This document shows, in pieces, positions 2,250-37,564 of a stretch of 64,000 bases of DNA. The notes under the pieces are model-generated. The model had not been told where the DNA came from. It saw nothing but the letters and a program-made list of their open reading frames with translations, and searched no databases. The position numbers were made by a program, and so were the translations under genes. How positions within the stretch are numbered: the stretch's first letter is position 1; every line of letters starts with the position of its first letter. Origin of the DNA: an uncultured Verrucomicrobiota bacterium (GTDB lineage Bacteria > Verrucomicrobiota > Kiritimatiellia > CAJWTS01); NCBI GenBank assembly GCA_913047795.1, contig CAJWTS010000006.1:19363-83362 (forward strand), given 5' to 3'.

Positions 2250-2251
2250 GC

Positions 2252-5200: not shown

Positions 5201-5638
5201 GAAGATAACTGGCTCTGGCGCAACAAGGGATCGGTTGAGTTTGGCGAGAAGCCGAAGAAGCTCAAGGAAGCCTGGACGAGCGGCCGACTCTATGGCGATA
5301 TCGCGTGGTATCTCGATGATCCCAATCGCGTCGTCTACTACCTCGACGGTCGCCTGGCGCGTACGATCGCACTTTCGGATACCTTCTTGCTGACGATTCC
5401 GCAGGGCAAAGCGGTGTGGCGCTATCAGAACAACGATCCCGACGGTATTGGTTCGTATGTGATAGCTTCGATCGGGTTCGAAGCGCGATTTCTCGAGAAA
5501 GAGAGAGATGCGCTGACCGAACGCTGGTACATGGATCTCTTCGCCCACTATGCCTGGGGTTGGTTCACGGACGAACCGCGGATCAAGGGCGATCGTAACT
5601 TCGAGGGCATCTGGTTCGGTGCCACGTTCCGGAAGTGA
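2252..5638 (+). CDS. nfrA: Outer-membrane exopolysaccharide export protein: signal peptide, long TPR-repeat periplasmic region, C-terminal beta-barrel (NfrA/PgaA/BcsC-like)
   Basis: 1128-aa ORF starting 2 nt after the nfrB stop. N-terminal signal-like segment (SCIAATGLLLIGAGPLVAEE). Hundreds of residues with Ala/Leu/Tyr-rich TPR periodicity. Last ~300 aa have alternating hydrophobic/aromatic beta-strand pattern ending ...GIWFGATFRK. Confidence 0.7.
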   Translation: MNHRSRIKISCIAATGLLLIGAGPLVAEELSQAMPIPKPKAGYGWFKNQRVNYSNRPLWKKANALVAEGKHTRAARVYDSILATDPHNNKAKVHLIHLYFQLEEWTRGIDLAESLIANYPDYLDAYFFKANYALRAGRTQLAVRTFEDILNRDPSRAVANSEAYKGLARARFPARAYQKRLPEVHRSLARLYSLSGDAMRAEEHAARWRDLTDEGEAHLFVAESALSRKDWDKAMEALTLAGERVDTEELKGRLSLKRGMVLYNLKDYDRAMNELMNAESRTENAADKALAQRYLGQIALKKGANTRAADYLLSATAIAFDEDAGAAALQALMASEQWERGVTAAEKMLKRENLSDNFQRVANENLMYFYKNSGNDRGYAMVADKLRRESPDDPRYLLESAVGADRLGRDERAREFYTTYLEGKFDPAVAFNLFYLLKETEDLAAGEVVLDRVVATEGLTDDMRLAANYELAQVYRATNRTNDYMRIMDQVVLEKAEAELLFEYGVQLYGSGYDDLAVELFKKAFERQTEAADNFKTAIIIAKINIGHGENEVGREWLEKARAFGEVDDEWHITMARTYFNNAEYDAVIERLLGVVSEQDTGGNLLLGFTYHLMRMPGLSLYHLNRVGSPEKLDPSERNTLFSNRAYLWFDQGNYVNALADAERAVAPHTADQMMLVQMKALLPLNRYEEARDIGLELLDTMDEEEAPSFVADLMKTLGTVHFYLNDNENAVEFFTAALKVDDGQYDVYYLRALAYHRLEEYEKAEEDFLLIETESSFIPAVLWGDMGIVEGYLENYDTGTVVLARSLEYYRYDIDGIEEMAYQHMKNNDNAKAQDAFFRGVRAYDNVIPYITGPDREIYTDDRKALKREYAKLDRTWTFETYVNRTEFGDDAVAGFAGTLSAVDGGLPSQAGVYLGYRPPKLGFRDEKTLDGFARVLANFEPDSWALDEDTYQLGIGLDWKPFKAFNYSMSFEKLIAIGDNAEDNWLWRNKGSVEFGEKPKKLKEAWTSGRLYGDIAWYLDDPNRVVYYLDGRLARTIALSDTFLLTIPQGKAVWRYQNNDPDGIGSYVIASIGFEARFLEKERDALTERWYMDLFAHYAWGWFTDEPRIKGDRNFEGIWFGATFRK

Positions 5639-6837
5639 CCATGGCGCGAGCACGGAGAACAAAGGACATGCGAAAAGCTTACGGCCTGATATTGATGATG
5701 GCAGCCTGCCTGTGGTCGCTCGACGGCCTGGCCGGAGATGCGACGTTTGTTCAGCTGAGTCGCGCCGCGGCAAAACGGTCGGCGGATGATTGGCGGGCGG
5801 AGTTTGAAAAGATGACGGCCATAGGGGTCGATACGATCATTCTGCAGTGGACGGCGGAGACAGACATTGCGTATTTCGTTCTTGTCGAGGACGCGGAGGC
5901 GCCGGAAGACCCCGTTGCCGCAGGGGTGCGCGCGCGGGAAGAAGACCTGGCCCCGACGAATCCGAGCGAGACCATGAAGGAGCCGGTCGTTCTGCCTGAC
6001 ATTTCCGCCGAGGAAACCTACCCCGAACAGTACCCGGTCCTGGAGCGGATTTTCGAGGCCGCCGAAGCAAGTGGCGTCTCGGTCGTGCTGGGCCTGCACC
6101 ACGATCCGAATTACTGGACCGAGATCACCGCACGCATGCGTGTATTGAAAGACTACTTTTATGTGCGCACCGCCCATAACGAACGGCTGCAATTGGAGTT
6201 GCTGAAGAAGTTCAGCCATCGCACGAGCTGGATCGGCTACTACGTGCCGGATGAGATCGATGATTTAACATGGCGCACGGATGCCAAGCTCGATCTCGTG
6301 GCGGGTTACGTGGCTCTCCTCAGCGAGCGCTTGCGCGCCAACGACGCCGACCGCGGCATCACGATCAGTAGCTTTTTCCGGCTGCGCACCGCCCCCGATG
6401 TCTATGCCCGTAACATCAAGCGCATTCTTTCCGGCAGCGACGTGACCGAGCTGTTGGTACAGGACGGCATGGGCGACGGCAACCCGTGGAAATACGCGAA
6501 ACACTATGTGCCGATTTACTATGAAACGCTTGCGGAGGTCCTGAAGGAAGAAGCCTACGATCGTAAAGTCGTGATTGAACTTTTTGAACGCGTCACGGAT
6601 GTGGGCGAACCCTTTCGTGCCGTTTCGGCGCCGGTCGATCGCGTCAGCCGGCAGATCGAAATGGCCGCCCCGCATTTCGCGGGGAAAGTCTACTTCACGT
6701 ACTCGAACTACATGCATCCGGCTCGGGGCGAACATGCCGCTGAGCTTTACGATGCAATGAAGTCCGGATCACGAAAAAGAGCCGCCGCAGTCGCCGCACC
6801 CGCCGCACCCGCCGCACCCGCACCGGAAGACAAGTAA
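5635..6837 (+). CDS. Secreted/periplasmic glycoside-hydrolase-like (TIM-barrel-like, YbcH/DUF4434-type?) protein with C-terminal Pro-Ala repeat tail
   Basis: GTG start overlaps the nfrA stop (GTGA). Signal peptide (MRKAYGLILMMAACLWSLDGLAG). ORF ends in AAAVAAPAAPAAPAPEDK. Third position in the nfr-like operon. Product assignment is tentative. Confidence 0.5.
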   Translation: MTMARARRTKDMRKAYGLILMMAACLWSLDGLAGDATFVQLSRAAAKRSADDWRAEFEKMTAIGVDTIILQWTAETDIAYFVLVEDAEAPEDPVAAGVRAREEDLAPTNPSETMKEPVVLPDISAEETYPEQYPVLERIFEAAEASGVSVVLGLHHDPNYWTEITARMRVLKDYFYVRTAHNERLQLELLKKFSHRTSWIGYYVPDEIDDLTWRTDAKLDLVAGYVALLSERLRANDADRGITISSFFRLRTAPDVYARNIKRILSGSDVTELLVQDGMGDGNPWKYAKHYVPIYYETLAEVLKEEAYDRKVVIELFERVTDVGEPFRAVSAPVDRVSRQIEMAAPHFAGKVYFTYSNYMHPARGEHAAELYDAMKSGSRKRAAAVAAPAAPAAPAPEDK

Positions 6838-6866
6838 CCGGCGCGTTCCGTGCCGCGCGGCTTTCC

Positions 6867-9500
6867 TTGAGTTCACATATGCCCGGGCGTATAATCCCGC
6901 CTCTCGTGAAAGAGACCGAAATAGATGTTTTCCCCATGGAGCCGGCCGATCCCGTGCCCGCCGACAGGATTCGCGTGCTCGTTATCGATGACGAGGAGCC
7001 GATTCGGAGGCTTGCGCGTCGCATACTGATCCAGGCAGGGTGTACCGTGGAGGCCGCCGTCGATGGCCGTGACGGGTTGCAATTGCTGCTCGGGAGCGAC
7101 TTCGATGTTGCTGTTGTTGACCTCAAGATGAGCCGCATGGACGGTATCGCGTTTCTGGTCGAGGCGCTTCGGATCTGTCCCTGGATCGGCGTCGTCATCG
7201 TAACCGGATTGAGCCAGCAGGTCGACGTGGACCGCGCTCGAGAACTCGGCGTAAAACACATTCTCAAGAAACCGTTCAGGGTCGACGAATTCCGCGGCAT
7301 GGTTTTCGAGCAGGCCGAGGAAAAGCGTCGCAAGTTAACGACCTCGTCGGACATCTCCCTTGGACGTATTCAGAACGCGCTCGGGCTGTTTCGCCAACTG
7401 ACCTGCGCGGCGACGGAATCGGACACGCTGCTTGATGCCCTGCAGAGCCTGAGCACGGGCCTGCAGATACTGCCGTCGGCCGTCGTCGCGATCCTGAGCC
7501 TGGAAGAGGACCCGATCCTGGTGATCAGCGTGCTAAAGCCCGTGTCGCGGGAATTTCTACAGACCTTCGAGGATGAGATCCGGACGCGTTATCAACGATT
7601 CAGCGGCCAGACCCTCTCGAGCGAACTGCGGATCGAGGTGCAGGGCGTGGCCGAGAGCGAGGACGGCGCCGCCGCGGTTGGAAACTCGTTCAGCATTCCA
7701 ATTATCACCGGTGGCGACATCAGTGGCCTGCTCGCGCATGCGTCGATCGATAAAGACGCGTATTCCGAGACGGACATGTTGTTCATGTACCACGCTGCCA
7801 ACCTGCTCTCCACGGTGCTGCTGACCTTCCGCCGGATGAAACAGCTCGCGGTGCGCGATGCGCTCACGGGCCTGTATAACCAGCGCGGCCTGCGGGAGCA
7901 GATGGAGAGCGTGTGGCAGATGGTGAAACGCTATCACTACCGGGTCAGCATCGCCGTGTTGGACATCGACCAATTCAAGGCGGTCAACGATACCTATGGA
8001 CACCCGGTCGGCGACGAAGTGTTGCTCGAGTTGGGCGACCTGTTGCGCGTCAGTGTCCGCGCGTCGGACATCATCGGCCGTTACGGCGGTGACGAATTCG
8101 TCATCTTGTTCCCCAATGCCTCGCCGGAAGACCTCGCCGCGTTTTCGGAACGATTCATGGAAACGCTGCGCGGTCATATCTTCTGCGACGGCACGCACGA
8201 CCTGAAGCTGACCGTATCAATGGGCATGTCCAGCAGCTTTGGCCAGGACTGGCTCTTGCTCTCGAGCAACGAGATCCTGACCCAAGCCGATCAGGCGCTC
8301 TATACCGCGAAAGATAACGGACGGGATCAGGTCTGCATGTGGTCGGCGGGCGGTTTCGCTGCGACCGAGACCATTGAGACGCTTGCGCCCGTGGCGCGCG
8401 AGACCGCCAAGCATGAAATCCAGGGTGCCGGGCGCCTGCTTGTCGTAGATGACGAGCAGGTCGTGCTCGACTACTTACGGACGGTTTTAAAAACCGAGGG
8501 CTACGAGGTCGTCGCCGTGCAATCCGCGGAAGAAGCCCGAGAGGCGTTGCGCTCTGCGCCCGGAGAAATCGGCATCGTCGTAACCGACATCACGCTTAAA
8601 GAGGAAAGCGGCTTGGATCTGCTCAAAGACCTTCGTTCCCTTGACGACATGCTTGTCGCGATTGTCATGACCGGGAACGTCACGCTCGATAACGCGGTCA
8701 GTAGTTTACGTCACGGTGCGTACGACTTCATCGAAAAGCCGATCGAAGTCGCCCCATTGCTTGCCGTTCTAAATCGCGCCCGCGAATACCGGCGCTTGCG
8801 CCTGCAGAACCGCCGCTACCAGCTGCGCCTCGAAGACATGGTGCGAGAAAAGAGCAAAGAGCTCTCGATTGCGCTCGAACAAGCTAAGCAGTCGTACAAC
8901 TTCACGCTCGAGGCACTGGTCAACATGATCGACGCGCGCGAGCAGAACACGGGTCGGCATAGCGTTAATGTCCGTGAGCTCTCCCTCATTCTCGGACGCG
9001 AACTGGACCTGGAGGAACGCGACATGCGGATCCTGAGCCAGGGCGCGCTCCTGCACGACATCGGAAAAATTGCGATTCCCGACAGCATCCTTCTCAAGGA
9101 AGGACCCCTCACGAGCGATGAGTGGGTTGTCATGCGCTCCCACGCCGAGAAGGGGTACGAGATCGTATCGCGATCGCCGTTTCTGAAGGAATCGGCCGAG
9201 ATCGTGCACTCCCACCAGGAAAAATATGATGGAACGGGCTATCCCCGCGGCCTCGCCGGCGATGATATATGTATGGGTGCCCGCATATTCGCGGTTGTCG
9301 ATGCCTACGATGCGATGCGCACCGACCGCCCCTACCGGAAGGCCATGCGCACAAGTGACGCCATAAACGAGCTGCGGACATATTCCGGAACGCAATTTGA
9401 TCCGACTGTCGTCGAAGCCGCGCTACGCTGCATCGACCAGATGGAGCGTGTCCGCGCCCTGACGACCGATATAGAAGCCAACGAAGTCGCCGCACGTTGA
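6867..9500 (+). CDS. Composite c-di-GMP enzyme: receiver (REC) - GAF-like - GGDEF diguanylate cyclase (intact GGDEF plus RxxD I-site) - second REC - HD-GYP phosphodiesterase
   Basis: 877 aa. REC1 (VLVIDDEEPIRR...VVDLKMSRMDG). GGDEF motif RYGGDEF at 8085-8099 preceded by RASD (I-site spacing). REC2 (LLVVDDEQVVLD...VTDITLKEESG). HD at 9054-9059 and GYP at 9237-9245 (HDIGK...HQEKYDGTGYPRGL). Confidence 0.85.
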   Translation: MSSHMPGRIIPPLVKETEIDVFPMEPADPVPADRIRVLVIDDEEPIRRLARRILIQAGCTVEAAVDGRDGLQLLLGSDFDVAVVDLKMSRMDGIAFLVEALRICPWIGVVIVTGLSQQVDVDRARELGVKHILKKPFRVDEFRGMVFEQAEEKRRKLTTSSDISLGRIQNALGLFRQLTCAATESDTLLDALQSLSTGLQILPSAVVAILSLEEDPILVISVLKPVSREFLQTFEDEIRTRYQRFSGQTLSSELRIEVQGVAESEDGAAAVGNSFSIPIITGGDISGLLAHASIDKDAYSETDMLFMYHAANLLSTVLLTFRRMKQLAVRDALTGLYNQRGLREQMESVWQMVKRYHYRVSIAVLDIDQFKAVNDTYGHPVGDEVLLELGDLLRVSVRASDIIGRYGGDEFVILFPNASPEDLAAFSERFMETLRGHIFCDGTHDLKLTVSMGMSSSFGQDWLLLSSNEILTQADQALYTAKDNGRDQVCMWSAGGFAATETIETLAPVARETAKHEIQGAGRLLVVDDEQVVLDYLRTVLKTEGYEVVAVQSAEEAREALRSAPGEIGIVVTDITLKEESGLDLLKDLRSLDDMLVAIVMTGNVTLDNAVSSLRHGAYDFIEKPIEVAPLLAVLNRAREYRRLRLQNRRYQLRLEDMVREKSKELSIALEQAKQSYNFTLEALVNMIDAREQNTGRHSVNVRELSLILGRELDLEERDMRILSQGALLHDIGKIAIPDSILLKEGPLTSDEWVVMRSHAEKGYEIVSRSPFLKESAEIVHSHQEKYDGTGYPRGLAGDDICMGARIFAVVDAYDAMRTDRPYRKAMRTSDAINELRTYSGTQFDPTVVEAALRCIDQMERVRALTTDIEANEVAAR

Positions 9501-9529
9501 CGCGTGGCCAAGAAGAAAGGGTTCCCCGT

Positions 9530-10636
9530 ATGTCGAGGTGCCGAATTTTATGTGTAGTCGGAACGCGACCGGAAGCCATCAAGATGGCGCCGGTCATCCG
9601 CGAGATTCAAAAGGACCCCGATACGTTCGATCTCACGATCAAGTCAACGGGTCAGCATCGTGAAATGCTGGTGCAGGCACTGAGTACCTTTTCGATCACC
9701 CCGAATGTCGACCTCGACATCATGGCCGGCGGCCAAACGCTGGCCTACGTGACCAGCGAAGTGCTGACCGCCATGCAGAGCTATCTGCAAAACAACGAGA
9801 CGGACGTGGTCATGGTACAGGGCGATACAACGACCACCATGGCCGCCGCAATGGCGAGTTTTTATAACGGCGTACGCGTGGCGCACGTCGAGGCCGGATT
9901 GCGTACCTGGAACGGCTGGGAACCCTTCCCCGAGGAGATGAACCGGCGCGTGACGAGCCTCGTGGGCCACTATCACTTTGCGCCGACGGACCTGTCCGCG
10001 CAGAACCTGCTCCGCGAGGGAGTCGATCCGGCACGCGTGCATGTGACTGGGAATCCGGTCGTCGATGCTCTGATGTATGTGCTGGAGCACACCGAAGCAC
10101 CGCCCACGCCGATCGCGGAGGGGCGGCCGTATATCCTGATGACCTGCCACCGGCGCGAAAGCTTTGGTGAGCCGATCCGGGAGATCTTTGGCGCGATTCG
10201 AGCGTTTGCGCAGACACATCCCGAGCTTTCGATATGGTATCCGGTGCATCCCAACCCGAAGGCCAAGGAACCGGCACACGAGATCCTTGGCGACTTGGAG
10301 AACGTCGTTTTGAGCGAGCCACTAGATTACGTGGGTTTCGTGCATGCCATGAAGGGCGCTTACCTTGTTGTATCGGATTCCGGCGGGGTCCAGGAAGAGG
10401 CACCGTCGCTTGGAAAACCGGTCCTGGTCTTGCGCGATGTCACGGAACGGCCCGAAGCCGTGGAAGCCGGGACCTGTCGGCTTGTCGGGCCGCACCGAGA
10501 CCGCATACTCGAGTCCCTGGAACGGCTCCTGTCGGACAAGGCAGAATATCAGCGAATGGCGGGAATCAGCAATCCCTTCGGGGATGGCGCCGCCGCGGAG
10601 CGTATCGTATCCCTCATCCGCGACGACTACGCCTGA
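9530..10636 (+). CDS. wecB: UDP-N-acetylglucosamine 2-epimerase (non-hydrolysing), makes UDP-ManNAc
   Basis: MSRCRILCVVGTRPEAIKMAPV..., DIMAGGQTL, HVEAGLRT, classic Epimerase_2 signatures. ATG at 9530 with AAGGG upstream. 29 nt after the previous gene. Confidence 0.9.
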   Translation: MSRCRILCVVGTRPEAIKMAPVIREIQKDPDTFDLTIKSTGQHREMLVQALSTFSITPNVDLDIMAGGQTLAYVTSEVLTAMQSYLQNNETDVVMVQGDTTTTMAAAMASFYNGVRVAHVEAGLRTWNGWEPFPEEMNRRVTSLVGHYHFAPTDLSAQNLLREGVDPARVHVTGNPVVDALMYVLEHTEAPPTPIAEGRPYILMTCHRRESFGEPIREIFGAIRAFAQTHPELSIWYPVHPNPKAKEPAHEILGDLENVVLSEPLDYVGFVHAMKGAYLVVSDSGGVQEEAPSLGKPVLVLRDVTERPEAVEAGTCRLVGPHRDRILESLERLLSDKAEYQRMAGISNPFGDGAAAERIVSLIRDDYA

Positions 10637-27044: not shown

Positions 27045-28067
27045 ATGATGCCTTACGATGTCGACCAGCCGGGAAGCTACGTCGTGACCGAGAACCTGAC
27101 CGGCTCAGCCGCATGGAATGGCATCACAATCGCCGCCGATGACGTCACGATTGATCTCAACGGCTTTGCGCTTACGGGTGTGCCCAACTCGAAGGACGGT
27201 ATCTCGGCCGGATCCAATTATGAAAACATCGAGATCCTGAACGGCAGCATCCAGAATTGGGGCGATGATGGGATCGACATGTTCGGCGTCACCAATGCAA
27301 TCGTTCGTGACCTGCGGGTATCCCACAACGCGGACGACGGAATGCGGGTTGGATACGCCAGCCGCGTCTCGGACTGCACCCTGCTTGAGAATACGCACGA
27401 CGGGCTCGTGGCACAGAACGGATCCATTGTCGCCCGCTGTGTTGCGCGCGACAATTCCGACAGCGGCCTGGTCGTCGGAAACGGCTGTACCGTCCGCGAC
27501 AGCGTATCGCGCCAGAACAGCGACGACGGTATTTATGCCGGCGAGGGGTCGACGGTCGTGGCCTGTACCACGCGATCCAACGGGGACAACGGGATCCAGG
27601 TCGGTCGCGGCAGCCTCGTGACGACCTCGGTCGGTTACGCCAATGACGACAATGGCATTTGGGTCAATGGTGCGGGCGGAAGCGTGATCAACTGTTCCGT
27701 GTTTGGGAACTCGCTTTACGGCATACGCGTTGGCGATGGCTGTTCGATCATTTCCTGCACCGCCAGCGGAAACGAAAAGGATTCCTTCTACGTATCCAAC
27801 AGTTGTTATGTTTTCGGCAACAATTCGTTCGAAGCGGCGAACAGCGGCTTCAAGGTCGCTGGAGACAAGAACCGGATCGATCGCAATCACGCCACGCGCG
27901 GCGCAAAGGGCTATAGTGTTACCGGTGCCGACAACCTCATCATCCGCAACTCCGCGTCGGGTAATAGCGATTCCAGCTACGGCATTGGAGGCGGTAACGA
28001 TGCCGGCGGCATCGAGACGGACCCGTCCGCGGCATCCGCCGGGCCGTGGGATAATTTTTCGGATTGA
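27045..28067 (+). CDS. Right-handed parallel beta-helix (PbH1 repeat) protein, paralog 1. Its N-terminal signal peptide lies in another frame (26956-27045), so this is a possible frameshift or pseudogene.
   Basis: Repeats of the form N-x-x-DG-I...V. In-frame translation upstream of the first ATG still reads SGRIEISQDMMPY, matching paralog 2, but has no start codon. A signal-peptide ORF MALSHRIRKLFASGLVSLSLGVAAS sits in the +1 frame. Confidence 0.6.
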   Translation: MMPYDVDQPGSYVVTENLTGSAAWNGITIAADDVTIDLNGFALTGVPNSKDGISAGSNYENIEILNGSIQNWGDDGIDMFGVTNAIVRDLRVSHNADDGMRVGYASRVSDCTLLENTHDGLVAQNGSIVARCVARDNSDSGLVVGNGCTVRDSVSRQNSDDGIYAGEGSTVVACTTRSNGDNGIQVGRGSLVTTSVGYANDDNGIWVNGAGGSVINCSVFGNSLYGIRVGDGCSIISCTASGNEKDSFYVSNSCYVFGNNSFEAANSGFKVAGDKNRIDRNHATRGAKGYSVTGADNLIIRNSASGNSDSSYGIGGGNDAGGIETDPSAASAGPWDNFSD

Positions 28068-28068
28068 T

Positions 28069-29253
28069 ATGAATCCTGGTCGCAGAGCATGCGTCGCGAT
28101 CCTGTCCCTCGTCACCATCCAGGGCCATGGCGACAACGGGCGTATCGAAATCTCGCAAGACATGATGCCCCTCACGATCAGCGAACCGGGAAGCTATGTC
28201 GCCGTCGAGAATCTCGTTCATGCCAATTCGGGAGATGGGATCACGATCACGGCCAACAACGTCACGCTGGACCTGAACGGGTATCGCCTGTTTGGAGGAG
28301 CGGGGACGGTCTCGGACGATGGCATCTCCATTCCTTATGGGCACAACATCGAAATCCGAAATGGCACGATCAAGGGATTCGGAGATCACGGCATCGATGC
28401 GCTGTTTTCGACCAACAGCGTTTTTCGGCACCTGCGTGTAATGGACAACTATGACGCCGGCATCCTCGCGGGCACGGCATGCTCGATACTCGAAACGGTC
28501 TCCTCCCGTAACGGCGTGCGCCAAGGGCGTTCGGGGACCGGGGTCGGGATAGAGGTGGATATCGGCTCGATGATTGTCGACTGCACCGTATCTGCCAATT
28601 ACGACCATGGCATGGTTGTGTCCTCGGGCTCGACGGTCATGAATTGCATCCTATCCGGCAACGGTCACGACGGCGCCCATGGCGGCTTCGGAACCCTGTT
28701 CCGCAGGATCATCGCCTTCGAGAACATCGGAGAAGCCTTTGAAGCAAACGGGGGAAGTGTGGTCGCGGAATGCGTTGCCCAGCGCAATATCGACGACGGG
28801 ATCAAGGCGGCAGACGAAGGGCGACTGCTCTTGGTGCGTTGTATTGCAACGGACACGGCCAACCTTGTCGACGGGAAGGGCGACGGGATTAAGGGGCAGA
28901 GCGGCAGTCTCGTGCTCGAGTGCACGGTGCGCGACAACTATGACGATGGCATTACCGTGGCCAGCGGAGCTTTCGTATACGACTGCCTTGGTTCCGGCAA
29001 CGGATATGGCGAGGACGAGTCGCCCGGTGGTGGTGTACGCATGACGGGTCCGCAGGAGGGGGTGGACTCGCGCTGTGACGACAATCACCTGCTGAACAAC
29101 GCACGCGGCGCCGAAGCCGGGGTAAATTGCCTGGTCGTGAAGAATAGTGCCGAGGGGAATACCATCGATTACGCGGTCTCCAGCCGTGCGCACGAAGACA
29201 TCACGAGCGTGAACCCCAACAACGCCGGCCCCTGGGCCAGCTTCGACTACTAG
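28069..29253 (+). CDS. Right-handed parallel beta-helix (PbH1 repeat) secreted protein, paralog 2
   Basis: MNPGRRACVAILSLVTIQGHG signal, then GRIEISQDMMPLTISEPGSYVAVENL. C-terminus NNAGPWASFDY parallels paralog 1 (SAGPWDNFSD). Start is 1 nt after the paralog 1 stop. Confidence 0.7.
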   Translation: MNPGRRACVAILSLVTIQGHGDNGRIEISQDMMPLTISEPGSYVAVENLVHANSGDGITITANNVTLDLNGYRLFGGAGTVSDDGISIPYGHNIEIRNGTIKGFGDHGIDALFSTNSVFRHLRVMDNYDAGILAGTACSILETVSSRNGVRQGRSGTGVGIEVDIGSMIVDCTVSANYDHGMVVSSGSTVMNCILSGNGHDGAHGGFGTLFRRIIAFENIGEAFEANGGSVVAECVAQRNIDDGIKAADEGRLLLVRCIATDTANLVDGKGDGIKGQSGSLVLECTVRDNYDDGITVASGAFVYDCLGSGNGYGEDESPGGGVRMTGPQEGVDSRCDDNHLLNNARGAEAGVNCLVVKNSAEGNTIDYAVSSRAHEDITSVNPNNAGPWASFDY

Positions 29254-31170: not shown

Positions 31171-31490
31171 GACGGGTACAGGGGGTTCATGCGGTGCGGA
31201 AAGGAACCGCCGTGCTCCGGAGAGCGGCATGGCCGACCGGGGCAAAGGCGGCGGAGCATCCGACAAAACCCGCCCGAACGCAAGATAAACTCGACCGGGT
31301 GACCGGGCCGGGTGCGAACCCGTTGTGCTCTGCGGGCACCAGGAACGGTGCGCTACACACGCCCTGGCATCAACGGCGCGACTGTCCGGGGTTCCTCCTC
31401 AACCGATCTCGCGCTTGCCATGCCCAGCCGGCCGGGAGTAGGATTTACATGCCTTGTCGCCGCCAACGCCGAACCATGAACGGGAGATCG

Positions 31491-32852
31491 ATGAGAACAC
31501 AATGCCTCACTGCAACACTCGCGATAATACTGCTCGTCAGCCACGCACAGGGCGCCGTGAACGTCGGCTTCCGCGACGACGGCACCGGACACTACCCGAA
31601 AGCCGAACCGGTCACGACCTGGCAGGACGCGCAGGACGACAAACCCGCCGTCAACATCACCTGGAAGACCAAGTTGCCGTCGTGGGGCAATGCATCGCCC
31701 GTGCCGGTCGGCGACGCGATCTTCGTTTGCGCCGAACCCTTTACGCTGATCTGTCTTGATGCCGCAACGGGCGCCATTCGATGGCAGGCGACCAACGACT
31801 ACGCCACGGCGAAAAGTTTCGCGGCGCGCCTGGCCGACGCGGGCAAGGAGCCGGACAGCGGAAACCTGAACGAGGATCTCGCCAATATCATGGGGGATGA
31901 CGACACGTCGATGAACGTGGGGGAGTCGGGCGATGATTTACAGGCGATGTCCGCGGAGCTGAAGCCCAAGGAGCCGCCGCCCACGGAAACGTTGCCAGCC
32001 AAGCATGGCTCGACCGGCTATTCGTCATCCACACCGGTCTCCGACGGTAAGCACGTCTGGGCCGTCTTCGGCAATGGCGTTGCCGCCGCGTATAAACTCA
32101 CGGGAGAACGGCTCTGGATCAGGGAGATCGAACGTCCGACGCACGGACACGGGCACAGCGCTTCACCGCGCCTCGTGGGCGGACTGCTTATCGTGTCGGT
32201 GGTCAACGTGCATGGGCTGGATCCGTTGACTGGCGAAGAACGCTGGAAGGCTAAATCCGGCGCGCGTTTTGGTAGCCCGGTGGTGACAAAAATCGCGGAC
32301 ACGATCTGTCTCGTCACGCCCAACGGGGAGATCATCGAGGCCAAAACGGGCCGCGTGGCAACGACCGGCATGAAGGGCCTGACCTACAATGGCCCCGTGG
32401 TTGCGGACGGAATTGCCGTCTTCTTCAACCAGGGCGAAGCATCGGCGTACCGCCTGCCGACATCGCTTCAGGGTACGCCCAAGGCCGAACAGATCTGGAA
32501 GGTACCGGTGCCCAACGAGCGCATGTACGCTTCCCCACTGGTTACCGGCGGCCGGGTCTATTGCCTGGGTCAGAACGGGACCCTGACGGCGCTCGATCTC
32601 AAGACCGGTGAGATTACTTACAAGGAAAAGGCCGGCACGAGCGGGACGTGCTACTCATCCATCGCCGCCGCCGGCGATCAATTAATCATGGCCTCAGAGG
32701 GCGGCAGCGTCATTTTCGTCAACCCGGGCGACACGCTTGATGTCACGGCGCGCAACAAGATCGAGAAGCTGCGTTCCACGCCCGTGCTCGACGGCAAGCG
32801 CCTCTACCTGCGCACCATGAATCATCTCTACTGCATCGCGGCGGATAAGTAG
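31491..32852 (+). CDS. Secreted PQQ-like beta-propeller repeat protein (BamB-like fold)
   Basis: Signal peptide (MRTQCLTATLAIILLVSHAQGA). Repeated segments of the ...G.I.W...G.V.. type. GGGAGA RBS 4 nt upstream of ATG 31491. Confidence 0.65.
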   Translation: MRTQCLTATLAIILLVSHAQGAVNVGFRDDGTGHYPKAEPVTTWQDAQDDKPAVNITWKTKLPSWGNASPVPVGDAIFVCAEPFTLICLDAATGAIRWQATNDYATAKSFAARLADAGKEPDSGNLNEDLANIMGDDDTSMNVGESGDDLQAMSAELKPKEPPPTETLPAKHGSTGYSSSTPVSDGKHVWAVFGNGVAAAYKLTGERLWIREIERPTHGHGHSASPRLVGGLLIVSVVNVHGLDPLTGEERWKAKSGARFGSPVVTKIADTICLVTPNGEIIEAKTGRVATTGMKGLTYNGPVVADGIAVFFNQGEASAYRLPTSLQGTPKAEQIWKVPVPNERMYASPLVTGGRVYCLGQNGTLTALDLKTGEITYKEKAGTSGTCYSSIAAAGDQLIMASEGGSVIFVNPGDTLDVTARNKIEKLRSTPVLDGKRLYLRTMNHLYCIAADK

Positions 32853-32874
32853 AGTGTTCCGACCCTGATGCCGC

Positions 32875-33291
32875 TCAGGGCTTTGTCGTAATCGCGAAGC
32901 GCTCGATCCCCAGTTCGCGCAGCACGTCCAACACGTCGACCGTGATCTGCGTGGGACTGTCCGCATCCGCCTTGATCGCAACCGCTTGCACGCGACGCGT
33001 TGCGGTCAGCGCCCGCAGTCGTTGATAAAGCGCGGTCGAAGAGGGCACAAAGGTCTTCTCCATGGCCAGCTCGCCGTTCGCGCTGATCTCGATCACGACC
33101 GTGGACGATAGATCCAGGATCTCGGCCGGGTCGGCGTTGCGCGCCGTGGGCAGCTCGATGGGGAAGAACGTGTCCTCGGCAAAGGTCGTCGTGACGATGA
33201 AGAAGAGCAGCAACATGAAGATGACGTCGATCAGCGGGGTGATCTCGAGCTGATCCTCATCGTCCGCGATCGCGTCAGAGAGCCGCTTCAT
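32875..33291 (-). CDS. exbD: Biopolymer transport protein ExbD/TolR
   Basis: MKRLSDAIADDEDQLEITPLIDVIFMLLLFFIV, canonical ExbD N-terminus plus periplasmic domain. Confidence 0.8.
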   Translation of the reverse strand: MKRLSDAIADDEDQLEITPLIDVIFMLLLFFIVTTTFAEDTFFPIELPTARNADPAEILDLSSTVVIEISANGELAMEKTFVPSSTALYQRLRALTATRRVQAVAIKADADSPTQITVDVLDVLRELGIERFAITTKP

Positions 33292-34012
33292 TTTTCGTCC
33301 CTCCGCTCCTGGCGTGCAGGTACCCGTAACGGACCCGGTCGATGTCGGACTCGATGCTCTCGCTGAACCGTTGTACGCGGGACAAAAACGCGCGGCGCGC
33401 GATGATGCCTGGGATGGCGATGACGATCCCAAAGACGGTCGTGAACAGCGCGATCATGATGCCCTCGGCCATCTTCTGTTTATCGGGATTCAAGGAAACG
33501 CGAATTTCGTCGAATACCAGCACCATACCGACGACCGTGCCGAGCAACCCCAGCAGGGGCGCGATCGTCGCGATCGTGCCGATCGCCTGGATGTTGCGCT
33601 TCAAGGGCTTCAGGGCCAGGAGCGATGCCTGTGTCAGCGTTTCCTCCAGGGCGACCCCACCCAGGTTGAATTCGCGCAGCCCCTGCGCCCAGGCGCGCCC
33701 GACCGTGGTGTTCGATTGCTCACAATGCTTTTGTGCGCTTTCGAAATCCAGTTTGCCGGCCTGGTCGATCACCGTCTGCGTCAGCGATCCATCCAGTACG
33801 TTTGCTTCACGCAACGCCAGCGAGCGCTCGAAGATCAGCATCGCGAGGACCAGCGAGCAGGCCCAAAGCGGCATCATCGGCACCGCGTACAACTCCTCGA
33901 CGTGACTGCTCAAAACACTAGCGTTATCCGCGGCCTCGTCGGCAGCAACGCAGTCGCCGGGGGTCGCGTACAGGACGGCAAACAAGGCCAGCATTAACAA
34001 TTTATTTTTCAT
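33275..34012 (-). CDS. exbB: MotA/TolQ/ExbB proton-channel protein
   Basis: GTIATIAPLLGLLGTVVGMVLVF...IMIALFTTVFGIVIAIPGIIA. ATG overlaps the stop of the upstream 881-aa gene (ATGA). Confidence 0.8.
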   Translation of the reverse strand: MKNKLLMLALFAVLYATPGDCVAADEAADNASVLSSHVEELYAVPMMPLWACSLVLAMLIFERSLALREANVLDGSLTQTVIDQAGKLDFESAQKHCEQSNTTVGRAWAQGLREFNLGGVALEETLTQASLLALKPLKRNIQAIGTIATIAPLLGLLGTVVGMVLVFDEIRVSLNPDKQKMAEGIMIALFTTVFGIVIAIPGIIARRAFLSRVQRFSESIESDIDRVRYGYLHARSGGTKNEAAL

Positions 34013-36654
34013 CGTATCGGGGCGGCCGCCGTGGCCATGCGCTGCAGGGTCAGCACGGGTGCCGCCATTCTCATTTTGCACTCAACCGTGCGGTTTTTTT
34101 CGCCATATGGCGTGAAACGATCTTTGTACACGACCTCCAGTGTCCTTCCGCCATGAACCCCCAGCGTATTCGCGCGCGGCGGCTTGAAGGCGGCCTGGGT
34201 CGCGACCGACCCGCGGAAGACGCCCGTGTCCTCACCGGTCTCTTCCAATATGGCGTATATGTAAGAACGTGCGGACCTCTCTTTCACGGCGACCATGACG
34301 CGATCCCGGTGCGTAGGCAAGAGATTCATATCCTGGTCGGTGACTTCGATGCCGACCGATTGTCCGGCCTGGATCGGTTGCGCCGCCTTGGCCGGTCGAC
34401 GGAAATGGGTGAAACGGACAGTGGCATCGGTGCCCAGCAGAAGCACGTCGCCCCAGGTGTCCGGCTTGTCGAATGTCTGCATGTTTTTCGGCAGGGACCA
34501 TTGCTGCGAGATCTCGCGCGCGTAACCCATGTTAATGGAGATATTCATGGCCACGTACAGGCCTGCCCGAAGATGGGGGCGGGCCAATGCGGCCCGGCTG
34601 ACGAACCCTTCGACCGTGTACCCCGCGGCGTCCAGGCGTCCGGTTGCGAGTCCTCGCGCCCGGGCCGGGTCCGTCACCGTCTCGAGACGGTTCTCGTAGC
34701 GGCCCAAGCCGCGAAACCCGCGACCGACCTCGATGAACGTCTGTTGCGCTGCTCCGCGATACCCGAACGGCATCAGGCAAAATTGCTGTGCGTAGGGGCT
34801 GTGATGCATCGTGCGTTTTCGCAGGTTCTGCATGTCGATCCATACCTCGAAGCAATCGCCCTCCCAGGCGCTCGTCTGATTGGGCTGCACCTGTGTCCGG
34901 CCGGGGACGTGGTAGCAATAGTAGAACCCCGCGCGAGACCATCGCACCCACACCTGGATCCCGTCCTCGAGCGGAACGCCATTAAAGGTCCAGCGCATGC
35001 GGAAGGGATGACGCAAGGCACCCCAGTCGCCGAGGTCGCCGTCGATTGTAAGGGACGCGCGCTGAAACGCCGCCGCGCCAAAGGCCAGTGTTTCAAAGCG
35101 GGGCCGGCTAAGCTTACGTGTCCTGCCGTCGGTCGACGCGCGCGGCCGCTGTTCGCCGTCTTCGACGAAAACACGCTCGGCCAGTAATTTCGATGTCGCC
35201 GCGGCTCGCGACACCGCGACATCAGCCAGGTTCTCGACAAGGGCCGCGCCCGGCGGGACGTTGGTTTGCCGCCGCGAGACAAACGCGCGGTAGATGTCAT
35301 AGGTGTCATGGTTGACGCGCGCATAGCGGTTGTATCGGTCCTCGAATGCCGCATGGCCCGTGCTCTCGGATTCCCCGCCGGACGACGCGCCCGACTGGAG
35401 CTCGCTCAAGGACGTGCCTAGCGGTCCAGCCGGCATGGGCATGCCGTGGCCCGAATCCGGACCCTCGCCCTCATGCTCCACATGGGGCCCCTCTCCTTCC
35501 CCGAGTTCGCGTGTCGCCTCGTCGTAGGTCACCGTGGAGTGGCCCAGGCGAAAGGTCTGCGGCGCGTCGTCAAAGCGTGCCAGTTTACCGGCCAGCGTGT
35601 CGAGGCGCCGCAACTGCTCCGCGACACCGGGGGTCAGCGCGAGGTCGGCCACGATATGGCGGTAAGCCGCACGGATACTGGCGCGCGTGCTGGCGGCGCC
35701 CTTTGGCGCGACCCCTTCATAGACCGCGACGGCAACCCCCGGAAGATCGCCGCCGCGCGCGTCATCCAGGCGATGCGCGGCGGCGAAGGTGATAAACGCA
35801 TTGGAGACCGCCGGAGCATGTAGTGCGCCCTGCAGGATGTTTTCAGCCAGCACGTCGCGGATCGGCGTGGAGAGGCGACCGACAATCGTCATGTCCGACC
35901 ACTCGATCTTGAGGAGTTCTTCCCGGACCTTTGCCAGCAGCTGGCGATCGATATCTTCGATCCCCTTCTCGCGGAGCTCGAGATCCATGGCGCCCGAAAC
36001 CTGTCGCGCCAGGGGCGGCAGTGTGGCGGTGAATATCGCCGCGTGGGAGGGCATCGCCTTCCTTGTTCGCGCCTCCTGCGCGATCGCGTTGTTCAGGGAT
36101 GTCGCGATCAGGGGCGCGGTCTGGCTTCGCAGGGCGGCGCAGGCGCGCGCATCAAAGGCAGGCGCGAGCGTTCGGCGAATGTAGGCCGCGACTTCGCCCG
36201 CGATCATCCGCTCGGACAAGCGTGCCAGGTATTGCTGCAGGTTCGTTATCGAGTGTTCGAAAAACGGTTGCGCCAACGGCGAGATGGATTCCAGGGTTCC
36301 GGCCTCGCGGCGTGCCTGCGCAAGGAAGCGTTCGCTCTCGTTCCGGACCTGCACGCGCACATCTTCCGCCAGGGCGTCCTGCAGCAGCGTTTCCAGCTCC
36401 TCGAGAACGGTGTCGCTCAGCTCTTCCGCCTGCAACTCGTGCTCTTCCTGCCGAATGCGCTCCTCTTCTGCCGCTTGCGCCTCGCGCAGCTCCGCTGCGG
36501 CTTCGTGGCGACGCTCTTCGATCGTCTCTGTTTTCCGTTCCCCGACAAGCATCAGGCCGAAAACGATGGCGGTATGCCATACGAGTGACAAAACGATTGG
36601 CCAGTGATATCGCGGCTGAGACATGCGTGCCAATGATCGAGCCTTGCCGCTCAT
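34009..36654 (-). CDS. Large membrane-anchored protein: N-terminal TM, long acidic/coiled-coil region, C-terminal beta-sandwich (CBM9/DOMON-like?) domains. Translationally coupled to exbB-exbD; possible TonB-like energy-coupled partner.
   Basis: 881 aa. TM (WPIVLSLVWHTAIVFGLMLVG). EERIRQEEHELQAEE-type charged helix. C-terminal IDGDLGDWGALRHPFRMRWTFNG...CFEVWIDMQN block. Confidence 0.55.
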   Translation of the reverse strand: MSGKARSLARMSQPRYHWPIVLSLVWHTAIVFGLMLVGERKTETIEERRHEAAAELREAQAAEEERIRQEEHELQAEELSDTVLEELETLLQDALAEDVRVQVRNESERFLAQARREAGTLESISPLAQPFFEHSITNLQQYLARLSERMIAGEVAAYIRRTLAPAFDARACAALRSQTAPLIATSLNNAIAQEARTRKAMPSHAAIFTATLPPLARQVSGAMDLELREKGIEDIDRQLLAKVREELLKIEWSDMTIVGRLSTPIRDVLAENILQGALHAPAVSNAFITFAAAHRLDDARGGDLPGVAVAVYEGVAPKGAASTRASIRAAYRHIVADLALTPGVAEQLRRLDTLAGKLARFDDAPQTFRLGHSTVTYDEATRELGEGEGPHVEHEGEGPDSGHGMPMPAGPLGTSLSELQSGASSGGESESTGHAAFEDRYNRYARVNHDTYDIYRAFVSRRQTNVPPGAALVENLADVAVSRAAATSKLLAERVFVEDGEQRPRASTDGRTRKLSRPRFETLAFGAAAFQRASLTIDGDLGDWGALRHPFRMRWTFNGVPLEDGIQVWVRWSRAGFYYCYHVPGRTQVQPNQTSAWEGDCFEVWIDMQNLRKRTMHHSPYAQQFCLMPFGYRGAAQQTFIEVGRGFRGLGRYENRLETVTDPARARGLATGRLDAAGYTVEGFVSRAALARPHLRAGLYVAMNISINMGYAREISQQWSLPKNMQTFDKPDTWGDVLLLGTDATVRFTHFRRPAKAAQPIQAGQSVGIEVTDQDMNLLPTHRDRVMVAVKERSARSYIYAILEETGEDTGVFRGSVATQAAFKPPRANTLGVHGGRTLEVVYKDRFTPYGEKNRTVECKMRMAAPVLTLQRMATAAAPIR

Positions 36655-36751
36655 CCGTCCAGCCGATTCCTCGCGCGGCAGGGGGAACCCCTAGCCCGCT
36701 CCTCCTTCGTCTTGCCTTGACAATTCTGCTCGCTCACGAAAACTCTGCTGC

Positions 36752-37564
36752 ATGTCCGGCTCCCTCCCGAAAGCGAATGCGAATGCGGATGGCGACGCGA
36801 TCGTGCCGCTTTCCGAGGAGCAGCGCTATCTGTTCGACACCAGGGGCTGGCTGTGTTTTCCGGGCCTGATCGGCGAAGAAGAGCTTGGGCCGATGCGCGC
36901 GTTCTATCGCCAGCTCAAAGACGACCCGGAGTCCCTGGTCGAGCACGAGCGCACGACCATCGCGGGGCCCCTGCTGCGATCGATCGACCATCCCGTGCTG
37001 GTGGGGTTTCTTCAGGCGTTCCTCTCGTACCAGGCGTTGGCCGGCGAGTCCTGCTACGATTTTCGGCTCGAATCGAGCGCCATGTATTTCCGCCCCGCCG
37101 GCTTCGACGCCTTTCGGCCGCACGGTGGGCAGGGCATGTTCGGGCGGCCCATCAACTCGCATGTCTATCACGTGCTGCCGGGCCAGGCCTACGCGGGCCT
37201 CGTTCGCGTGGTCTGGGAGCTCAACCCGGTCCGCATGGGCATGGGTGGCACCAAGTTTCTTTCGGGCAGCCACAAGGCCGCATTCCCCATCCCTAAATCT
37301 GCGTCTGAGGATCGCCTCTCGCCGTTATGGGAGACGTACGAATGCCCGGCCGGCTCCCTGCTCGTCTTCACGGAAGCCATTTGCCACACGGGAGATCTTT
37401 GGGCCGACGAAGAGCACGATCGCATGGCCGTCTTCCGCTGCTACAACACGGTCGGCAGCAAATGGCACGAGTGGGAACCACCGGAGAAGCTCGTCGAAAC
37501 CATGCACCCGCTGCGCCAGAGCCTTTTCCGGGCGGTGCATTGCGAGAACAACCCACTATCGTAA
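36752..37564 (+). CDS. Phytanoyl-CoA dioxygenase (PhyH) family Fe(II)/2-oxoglutarate oxygenase, paralog A
   Basis: LSEEQRYLFDTRGWLCFPGL PhyH N-terminal signature. His/Asp-rich core. Confidence 0.7.
   Translation: MSGSLPKANANADGDAIVPLSEEQRYLFDTRGWLCFPGLIGEEELGPMRAFYRQLKDDPESLVEHERTTIAGPLLRSIDHPVLVGFLQAFLSYQALAGESCYDFRLESSAMYFRPAGFDAFRPHGGQGMFGRPINSHVYHVLPGQAYAGLVRVVWELNPVRMGMGGTKFLSGSHKAAFPIPKSASEDRLSPLWETYECPAGSLLVFTEAICHTGDLWADEEHDRMAVFRCYNTVGSKWHEWEPPEKLVETMHPLRQSLFRAVHCENNPLS
37504..37553. repeat. 50-bp perfect direct repeat, copy 1 (last 16 codons of PhyH paralog A)
   Basis: GCACCCGCTGCGCCAGAGCCTTTTCCGGGCGGTGCATTGCGAGAACAACC, identical to 41766-41815. Confidence 0.9.

Follow-up and report, generated by a model that had tools for sequence, protein, structure and literature searches.

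The window analysed here is a 64,000-nucleotide (nt) stretch of contig CAJWTS010000006.1 from an uncultured bacterium of the Verrucomicrobiota class Kiritimatiellia. On its minus strand, a gene for an 881-amino-acid (aa) protein is followed by exbB/tolQ-type and exbD/tolR-type genes (Table 1). We propose that these three genes encode a single machine, in which a proton motor of the ExbB5-ExbD2 type would drive a force transducer of its own, periplasmic and non-canonical, whose head would bind glycan. The products of the second and third genes both match their Pfam families (MotA_ExbB and ExbD) above the cut-off.

The genes are tightly packed. The minus-strand junction between the large gene and exbB reads ...CCG ATA CGA TGA AAA AAT AAA..., in which the TGA stop of the large gene has three bases in common with the exbB ATG, giving the ATGA overlap. 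The exbD ATG lies 17 nt upstream of the exbB stop codon, and a Shine-Dalgarno-like stretch (AGGAG..GGAGG) precedes this start. Direct reading of both junctions thus bears out the overlaps at either end of exbB that a sequence-only reading of the window had described. A promoter and terminator scan of positions 32600-37000 found no signal that exceeded chance, nor any internal one separating the three genes.

Table 1. Genes, junction and protein segments of the three-gene cassette in the window.
Feature	Position	Strand	Description	Basis
Large gene	34009..36654	minus	881 aa; putative TonB/TolA-like transducer with CBM9 and Ig-like head	open reading frame list
exbB/tolQ-type gene	33275..34012	minus	245 aa	PF01618 3e-24, 85.6 bits
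exbD/tolR-type gene	32875..33291	minus	138 aa	PF02472 1e-25, 90.7 bits
ATGA stop/start overlap, large gene and exbB	34009..34012	minus	translational coupling	sequence read
Transmembrane helix, residues 17-39	36538..36606	minus	sole hydrophobic segment; Ser23-x3-His27-x6-Leu34, SHLS-type	hydropathy
All-helical periplasmic domain, residues 40-363	35566..36537	minus	continues transmembrane helix; acidic coiled-coil-like start	DSSP, pLDDT 85-96
Disordered flexible linker, residues 367-475	35230..35556	minus	Gly/Glu/Pro/Ser-rich	pLDDT <50 for 367-448, 459-475; composition
CBM9-type beta-sandwich, residues ~520-745	34420..35097	minus	putative clamp W597/F728; invariant D538, G539, W544, D600, E603, D607	
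C-terminal Ig-like domain, residues ~746-870	34045..34419	minus	VxDxDMNL...LxETGxxTGVFxGS...YxD	pLDDT >90

The N-terminal transmembrane (TM) helix of the large protein provides the first link to the motor. It reads RYHWPIVLSLVWHTAIVFGLMLVG, which contains the spacing Ser23-x3-His27-x6-Leu34. TonB and TolA have in common a motif termed SHLS (Ser-x3-His-x6-Leu-x3-Ser), whose Ser and His were found to be the structurally conserved part in a 2025 cryogenic electron microscopy study of the E. coli complexes, with Leu and the last Ser poorly conserved in TonB (PMC12215075). In those structures the Ser and His touch Ser34/Trp38 of ExbB (Ser28/Trp32 of TolQ) and, via the Trp, also a Pro of TM3 (PMC12215075). 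The final Ser of SHLS is not present in the window protein. In alignments of 55 and 47 full-length family members, every sequence has His27 and at least 90% have Ser23; in the set of 47 the counts are 47/47 for His and 45/47 for Ser. Of 106 homologues that were not preselected and are 700 aa or longer, 91 carry S/A/G-x3-H within a hydrophobic N-terminal helix, and most of the others are truncated at the 5' end. We regard the conservation of this motif across the family as decisive for the prediction that the TM helix is of the TonB/TolA type. In one subfamily of homologues (P0095, P0097, P0098, P0108-P0110, P0113, P0119, P0125, P0134, P0136, P0138, P0151), a conserved cytoplasmic motif, NREWKSFxxRW, directly precedes the Ser-x3-His helix; the sampled members P0098 and P0110 have the gene order exbB-exbD-large.

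On the motor side, too, several residues are conserved. The window ExbB has a predicted signal peptide, Ser53 in TM1, the Thr residues of GLLGTVVGM and ALFTTVFG, and the Pro of AIPG. The TM1 Ser is at least 90% conserved in 24 cassette ExbBs, where it aligns with Ser34 of E. coli ExbB and Ser28 of TolQ. Both pore Thr residues and the TM3 Pro are conserved in the same 24 proteins, as is the TM Asp (TPLIDV) in 22 cassette ExbDs. The numbering of the E. coli reference sequences in this alignment agrees with that of the published structures (PMC12215075). By NCBIfam models and searches of PDB sequences, the motor pair is about equally close to TolQ/TolR and ExbB/ExbD; the window ExbB matched TolQ (8odt) at 2e-8 and ExbB (5sv0) at 4e-6. 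Within residues 1-45, the window ExbB shows what looks like a cleavable signal peptide, together with a short extension into the periplasm at the N-terminus. Two ExbB entries, 7ajq and 6ye4, likewise exceed E. coli ExbB in length (281-287 vs 244 aa).

The periplasmic part of the large protein was examined in a full-length AlphaFold2 model built from an alignment of 55 homologues (mean predicted local distance difference test score, pLDDT, 82.8). Residues 17-94 form one unbroken helix that comprises the TM segment and the start of the periplasmic part, including the string EERIRQEEHELQAEE at residues 63-77. Pro content is 2-6 per 100 residues throughout the protein. Across the family, the spacer between TM helix and head spans 220-1177 aa (median 627), contains 3.6% Pro and is rich in Ala, Glu, Lys and Arg. 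In type, this spacer resembles TolA domain II and not the proline spacer of TonB. When the helical domain was modelled alone (pLDDT 78), a Foldseek search of the PDB gave nothing better than E 0.12, and the domain is therefore not tied to TolA domain II or to any known fold. Within it, a motif EVxxYIRxxVAPxxKxRIExEL (residues 154-175; window 36190-36135) is conserved, with Pro165 in 33/47 members, indicating that the spacer is not featureless; ExbD or a different partner might make contact there.

At the C-terminal end, a beta-rich module (residues ~480-870, pLDDT >90) forms the head. Its top Foldseek match in the PDB is the Thermotoga family 9 carbohydrate-binding module (CBM9) 1i82 (E 4.8e-9, target TM-score 0.78), followed by a Nitrosopumilus S-layer protein with immunoglobulin (Ig)-like domains, Caldicellulosiruptor CBM9.3 (7nwo, target TM-score 0.72) and a putative carbohydrate-binding protein of Bacteroides. 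Searched against PDB sequences, the family profile matched 1i82 at E 1.1e-12 and the S-layer protein 8c8k at E 4.4e-12. Pfam CBM9_1 matches 42/47 members (best 2.6e-14); in the window protein alone the match is below threshold, at 20.0 bits vs a cut-off of 23.4 (E 6.8e-4). The strings IDGDLGDWGALRHPF (residues 537-551, including the IDGDLGDW quoted in the sequence-only reading) and CFEVWIDMQN (residues 601-610) lie within this head. We also considered a heme-binding DOMON head. The gamma subunit of ethylbenzene dehydrogenase and NxrC gave much weaker Foldseek matches, and this candidate was rejected on two grounds: the head conserves no Met, His or Lys, and its sequence match to CBM9 is far stronger. 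No TonB or TolA C-terminal family was found in any of the 47 homologues (Pfam, E<=0.01), and in the window protein TonB_C was detected neither by Pfam (E<=1) nor by NCBIfam, by the profile search of PDB sequences or by Foldseek. Pfam and Foldseek likewise found no von Willebrand factor A (vWA) domain in the large protein.

Several features of the sugar-binding site appear to be retained. In TmCBM9-2, an aromatic clamp of Trp71 and Trp175 (Tyr89/Trp191 in CBM9.3) grips the ligand, the sugar forms hydrogen bonds with Gln96 and Asn172, and chain ends are bound preferentially; the ligands of known CBM9 modules are chain ends of beta-glucans and xylans (PMC8280721). The site was mapped by hidden Markov model alignment to 1i82 and column counts, not by superposition. 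In this mapping, Trp71 corresponds to W597 (W/Y/H/F in 46/47 members), Trp175 to F728 (W/F/Y in 32/47, Ser in 11/47), Gln96 to Q624 (41/47) and Glu77 to E603 (invariant); Arg98 falls on C626 and is not conserved. A glycan-end-binding site in the window protein and most of its relatives is thus plausible.

No Pfam model was found for the Ig-like domain that follows. It gives a weak match to the family model of the anammox S-layer protein Kustd1514, and giant proteins, the longest of 6140 aa, contain 6-23 copies of it (P0061, P0062, P0072, P0075, P0101, P0128); among them, P0101 has six Ig-like copies together with a CBM9 domain.

This architecture largely agrees with the sequence-only reading, which had described one N-terminal TM segment (residues 18-39 are the only hydrophobic segment), a long acidic helical stretch, a CBM9/DOMON-type fold, no Pro-rich spacer and no TonB C-terminal domain. 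All of these features stand. The Ser-x3-His motif and the ~110-residue linker at 367-475 had been missed.

An exhaustive HMMER search of 1.84 billion cluster representatives recovered 462 family members at E<1e-3; of these, 261 also pass E<1e-10 and 82 pass E<1e-30. The homologues are nearly all 800-1550 aa long, with the conserved part (query residues ~500-870) at the C-terminal end, and their public names are 'hypothetical protein' or 'sugar-binding protein' (PGAP). Relatives were found by this search and by a C-terminal query; word-index searches with the full protein or a 47-sequence profile gave only the 97%-identical P0001, and the candidate list of the word index was probably swamped by low-complexity coiled-coil words.

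The genomic distribution of the family was obtained from a pattern scan with a 15-sequence alignment over one genome per GTDB species, which yielded 34 loci. Six contain short stand-alone CBM9-like proteins only, and 28 contain family members. The latter come from Planctomycetota (Planctomycetia, Phycisphaerae, Brocadiia), Verrucomicrobiota (including the cultured Cerasicoccus maritimus, with WP_269540133.1 at locus L023) and Lentisphaerales, together with single metagenome-assembled genomes (MAGs) labelled Spirochaetota and Anaerolineales. At 21 loci exbB and exbD lie directly downstream on the same strand, and at two more exbB is cut by the contig end. Two of the 28 loci end too early to tell, so that the linkage holds at 23 of 26 informative loci. 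All-against-all clustering of the open reading frames (ORFs) neighbouring these genes identified no conserved neighbour besides exbB and exbD, and the unit is therefore a three-gene cassette. The linkage extends to distant members on sampled metagenome contigs, all seven of which adjoin MotA_ExbB and ExbD genes with gaps of -23 to +65 nt. Three of these contigs have the order large-exbB-exbD and four have exbB-exbD-large. The persistence of linkage through a permuted gene order provides strong evidence for a functional unit. Pairing of the large gene with unrelated neighbours, a possibility raised in the sequence-only reading, is not what the 26 loci and seven contigs display.

Copy number and surroundings vary among these loci. 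One Planctomycetaceae MAG (CAZNSB01; L028 1-10156, L026 and L027) carries five or more copies, of which three stand in tandem, and exbBD does not adjoin them; MAG CBDUFM01 (L009, L024, L025) has three separate complete cassettes. L043 (57-3769) has, upstream of its family member, a second exbB-exbD pair followed by 165- and 681-aa proteins without a Pfam match, which may be another kind of motor-coupled partner. Carbohydrate-active genes (GH4, GH94 and a sulfatase with Laminin_G_3) flank the cassette on three of the seven metagenome contigs (L036 1816-3765, L038 7839-10648, L042 116-2044); none of them is a conserved neighbour, and genes of this kind are frequent in these phyla anyway.

Taken together, these data support the proposal that the three genes encode one machine, to which we assign a probability of about 0.6. 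The suggestion that the large protein is a TonB analogue, already made in the sequence-only reading, is strengthened by the Ser-x3-His motif with its invariant His and by the matching Ser in TM1 of the cassette ExbBs. The 881-aa protein would span the inner membrane, leaving ~16 residues on the cytoplasmic side, and its TM helix would dock on the outside of the ExbB pentamer through Ser23 and His27, in the manner of TonB Ser16/His20 and TolA Ser18/His22, and the likely docking contact would be ExbB Ser53. The long helical domain, and then the flexible tether, would carry the CBM9 and Ig-like head across a wide periplasm, where the W597/F728 clamp would grip a glycan, probably at a chain end. 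Proton flow through ExbBD would then pull or otherwise move the ligand, for which an imported polysaccharide, peptidoglycan or another envelope glycan, and a glycosylated outer-membrane component are candidates. The combination of a very long helical spacer and a flexible tether would suit the wide and variable periplasm of Planctomycetes-Verrucomicrobia-Chlamydiae (PVC) bacteria.

A more specific form of this mechanism can be put forward tentatively, as a possibility that we ourselves find doubtful. In such an ExbBD-powered 'glycan winch', a polysaccharide chain would be seized by its end in the CBM9 clamp, either at the outer membrane or beneath it, and the motor would reel the chain into the enlarged PVC periplasm. 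Speculatively, the winch could account for the 'selfish' uptake of polysaccharides that has been seen in Planctomycetes by a route that needs neither TonB nor SusCD; the mechanism of this uptake was stated to be unknown (PMC6474216).

Several observations weigh against the one-machine proposal. The match of the N-terminus to TonB and TolA models is weak by itself: the NCBIfam TonB equivalog model aligned with residues 14-54 of the large protein at E 0.11, and the family profile matched the TolA N-terminus among PDB sequences at the same value. In ExbB of the cassette, the position equivalent to E. coli Trp38, which contacts TonB, is Ala. The AlphaFold2 helix continues beyond the membrane without the disordered beta-strand 'motor box' segment reported for TonB/TolA and the vWA class, and the contact with the periplasmic domain of ExbD may therefore differ, although a monomer model cannot reveal a strand that forms on ExbD binding. 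Residues 40-46, checked for such a box, are only weakly conserved; V/I occupies position 45 in 25/47 members. The second clamp aromatic is missing from the minority of members with Ser at that position. The ORFs neighbouring the loci include no gene for an outer-membrane partner. Finally, three loci (L017, L026, L028) carry paralogues without adjacent exbBD. TonB paralogues, too, often lack adjacent exbBD.

Among the alternatives, the one that survives best, and that we nevertheless judge unlikely, is a PVC-type TolA analogue. Such a protein would use the proton-motive force for tethering or remodelling of the envelope (outer membrane or peptidoglycan) in growth and division, with a head that binds peptidoglycan or another structural glycan, not a nutrient. 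This reading is consistent with the long alpha-helical, low-Pro spacer, which is like domain II of gamma-proteobacterial TolA, with the exbB-exbD-large order of the four distant members, which equals tolQ-tolR-tolA, and with motor subunits whose scores against TolQ/TolR equal or exceed those against ExbB/ExbD. The location of the window cassette among housekeeping genes (topoisomerase IV, BipA) also fits. However, TolA domain III is absent, no tolB, pal or cpoB-like gene is linked at any genome locus or metagenome contig, and the ligands of known CBM9 modules are not peptidoglycan (PMC8280721). In addition, several genomes have 3-5 paralogues, as is typical of TonB but not of TolA.

The large protein might instead anchor or regulate the motor, either by fixing ExbBD in place on a glycan of the envelope, just as MotB's peptidoglycan-binding domain does for flagellar stators, or by gating the channel, with an unlinked TonB-like protein as the actual output. 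We give this reading a small chance. It would account for a short ExbD that has no peptidoglycan-binding domain, for a head that is a binding module and not an enzyme, and for the missing outer-membrane partner, but in solved complexes a Ser-x3-His helix is the signature of force-receiving TonB and TolA and not of a stator anchor (PMC12215075). Moreover, the orphan paralogues in L017, L027 and L028 keep the x3-His motif, with Ser or Gly in first place (none was detected in L026), and look like extra outputs on one motor.

Still less probable is the motor-coupled envelope sensor that the sequence-only reading had offered as an alternative, in which glycan binding would be relayed via the TM helix to ExbB or cytoplasmic partners and no mechanical work would be done on the ligand. 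Relay of a signal to ExbB by the TonB Ser and His has been proposed by Celia et al. (PMC12215075), and the NREWKSFxxRW subfamily does have a conserved cytoplasmic motif ahead of the TM helix. The sensor has become less likely because only ~16 residues of the window protein are cytoplasmic; they include no output domain, and no regulator gene is linked to the cassette. That an ordinary membrane-anchored sugar-binding protein, as the public annotations would have it, lies by chance beside a Ton or Tol motor is effectively excluded, because the start/stop overlaps, the linkage in two gene orders across three or more phyla, and the invariant His inside the TM helix all contradict it.

In the window, the cassette is flanked by a BamB/PQQ-like propeller gene and bipA on one side and by a PhyH-like gene and topoisomerase IV genes on the other, the same arrangement as in the near-identical contig L001. 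The propeller gene (31194-32852, convergent) was considered as a TolB-like partner and rejected, being kept only in L001 and at no other locus. Pfam scans of ~45 other window ORFs found no TonB_C protein and no TonB-dependent transporter. A Zorya-like or other known anti-phage system was also considered and rejected: PADLOC returned nothing for the large protein or ExbD, no linked effector genes were found, and the window ExbB gave only generic matches to the ZorA models (E 0.003-0.005) over the common MotA/ExbB core. Two right-handed beta-helix proteins are encoded in tandem at 27045-29253, in L001 as well. Further away, genes at 231-10636 encode a family-2 glycosyltransferase with an MshEN domain, a 1128-aa TPR/NfrA_C protein, a DUF4434 protein, a response regulator with GGDEF and HD-GYP domains and a UDP-GlcNAc 2-epimerase; this cluster looks like a cyclic di-GMP-controlled locus for exopolysaccharide synthesis and export.

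Comparison with characterized systems places the large protein between known classes. It has in common with TonB a single N-terminal TM helix with Ser-x3-His, an N-in/C-out topology, the tonB-exbB-exbD operon order of many bacteria with translational coupling, and several paralogues per genome, some of them orphan. Unlike TonB, it has no TonB_C and no Pro-rich rigid spacer, this part being predicted to consist of helices and a disordered tether; it is also 3-6 times longer, ends in a CBM9 and Ig-like head, and is not linked to a TonB-dependent transporter. With TolA it has in common the SHLS-type TM helix, a long alpha-helical periplasmic domain (helices at 17-363), which is a likeness in type only given the lack of a Foldseek match, and, in some members, a tolQ-tolR-tolA-like gene order; the motor subunits are likewise as close to those of the Tol system as to ExbB/ExbD. 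The absence of domain III and of tolB, pal, cpoB and ybgC neighbours, the multiple copies in some genomes and the carbohydrate-binding head distinguish it from TolA. Because it has neither the TonB_C domain and Pro-rich spacer nor TolA domain III and a tol-pal context, the large protein is neither TonB nor TolA.

The head, too, differs from its nearest relatives in its setting. It has the fold, the IDGxLDExW start, the DxxExxxD motif and the clamp positions of CBM9 modules such as TmCBM9-2 of Thermotoga Xyn10A (1i82) and CkCBM9.3 (7nwo). Unlike them, it is not attached to a glycoside hydrolase, its tether fixes it to the inner membrane, it is predicted to lie in the periplasm, and it does not keep Arg98 of TmCBM9-2. 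The Ig-like motif DxDxN...ETGxxTGxFxG...YxD recurs in the Nitrosopumilus maritimus S-layer protein (8c8k) and the anammox Kustd1514 family. In contrast to the repeat arrays of those secreted lattice proteins, a single copy here ends a membrane-anchored periplasmic protein.

To our knowledge, Ton and Tol were long thought to be the sole outputs of ExbBD/TolQR-type motors. Williams-Jones et al. reported in 2025 a class of vWA-headed transducers with an SHLS helix, encoded beside tolQ/tolR-like genes in Planctomycetes, Verrucomicrobia and others, and stated that more motor-energised systems are still to be discovered; their paper does not mention CBM or sugar-binding heads (PMC12204202). The family described here resembles that class in its TM helix with the SHLS His, its linker, its non-TonB globular head, its adjacent tolQ/tolR-like motor genes and its occurrence in Planctomycetes and Verrucomicrobia. 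It differs in having a CBM9 and Ig-like head and a much longer, helical linker; in addition, the vWA loci of PVC bacteria include a TPR gene and two tolR-like genes, in contrast to the three genes of the present cassette (PMC12204202). Searches of the literature on ExbB, CBM9 and TonB and on motor diversity found no description of the large-protein family, and the three-gene system, conserved and widespread, is apparently undescribed.

After Ton/Tol and the vWA class, this family would add a third class of output head, one predicted to bind sugars and not proteins. The names 'sugar-binding protein' and 'hypothetical protein' assigned by PGAP miss the motor link. The cassette is compact and conserved, with clear targets for point mutation in His27, the ExbD Asp and the clamp aromatics. 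If true, the glycan winch would perhaps be the first case of a machine driven by ExbBD in which the moving part takes hold of carbohydrate directly. Planctomycetota, Verrucomicrobiota and Lentisphaerota are major polysaccharide degraders. With hundreds of 50%-identity clusters across these three phyla, the family offers a handle on polymer import and envelope organisation in them.

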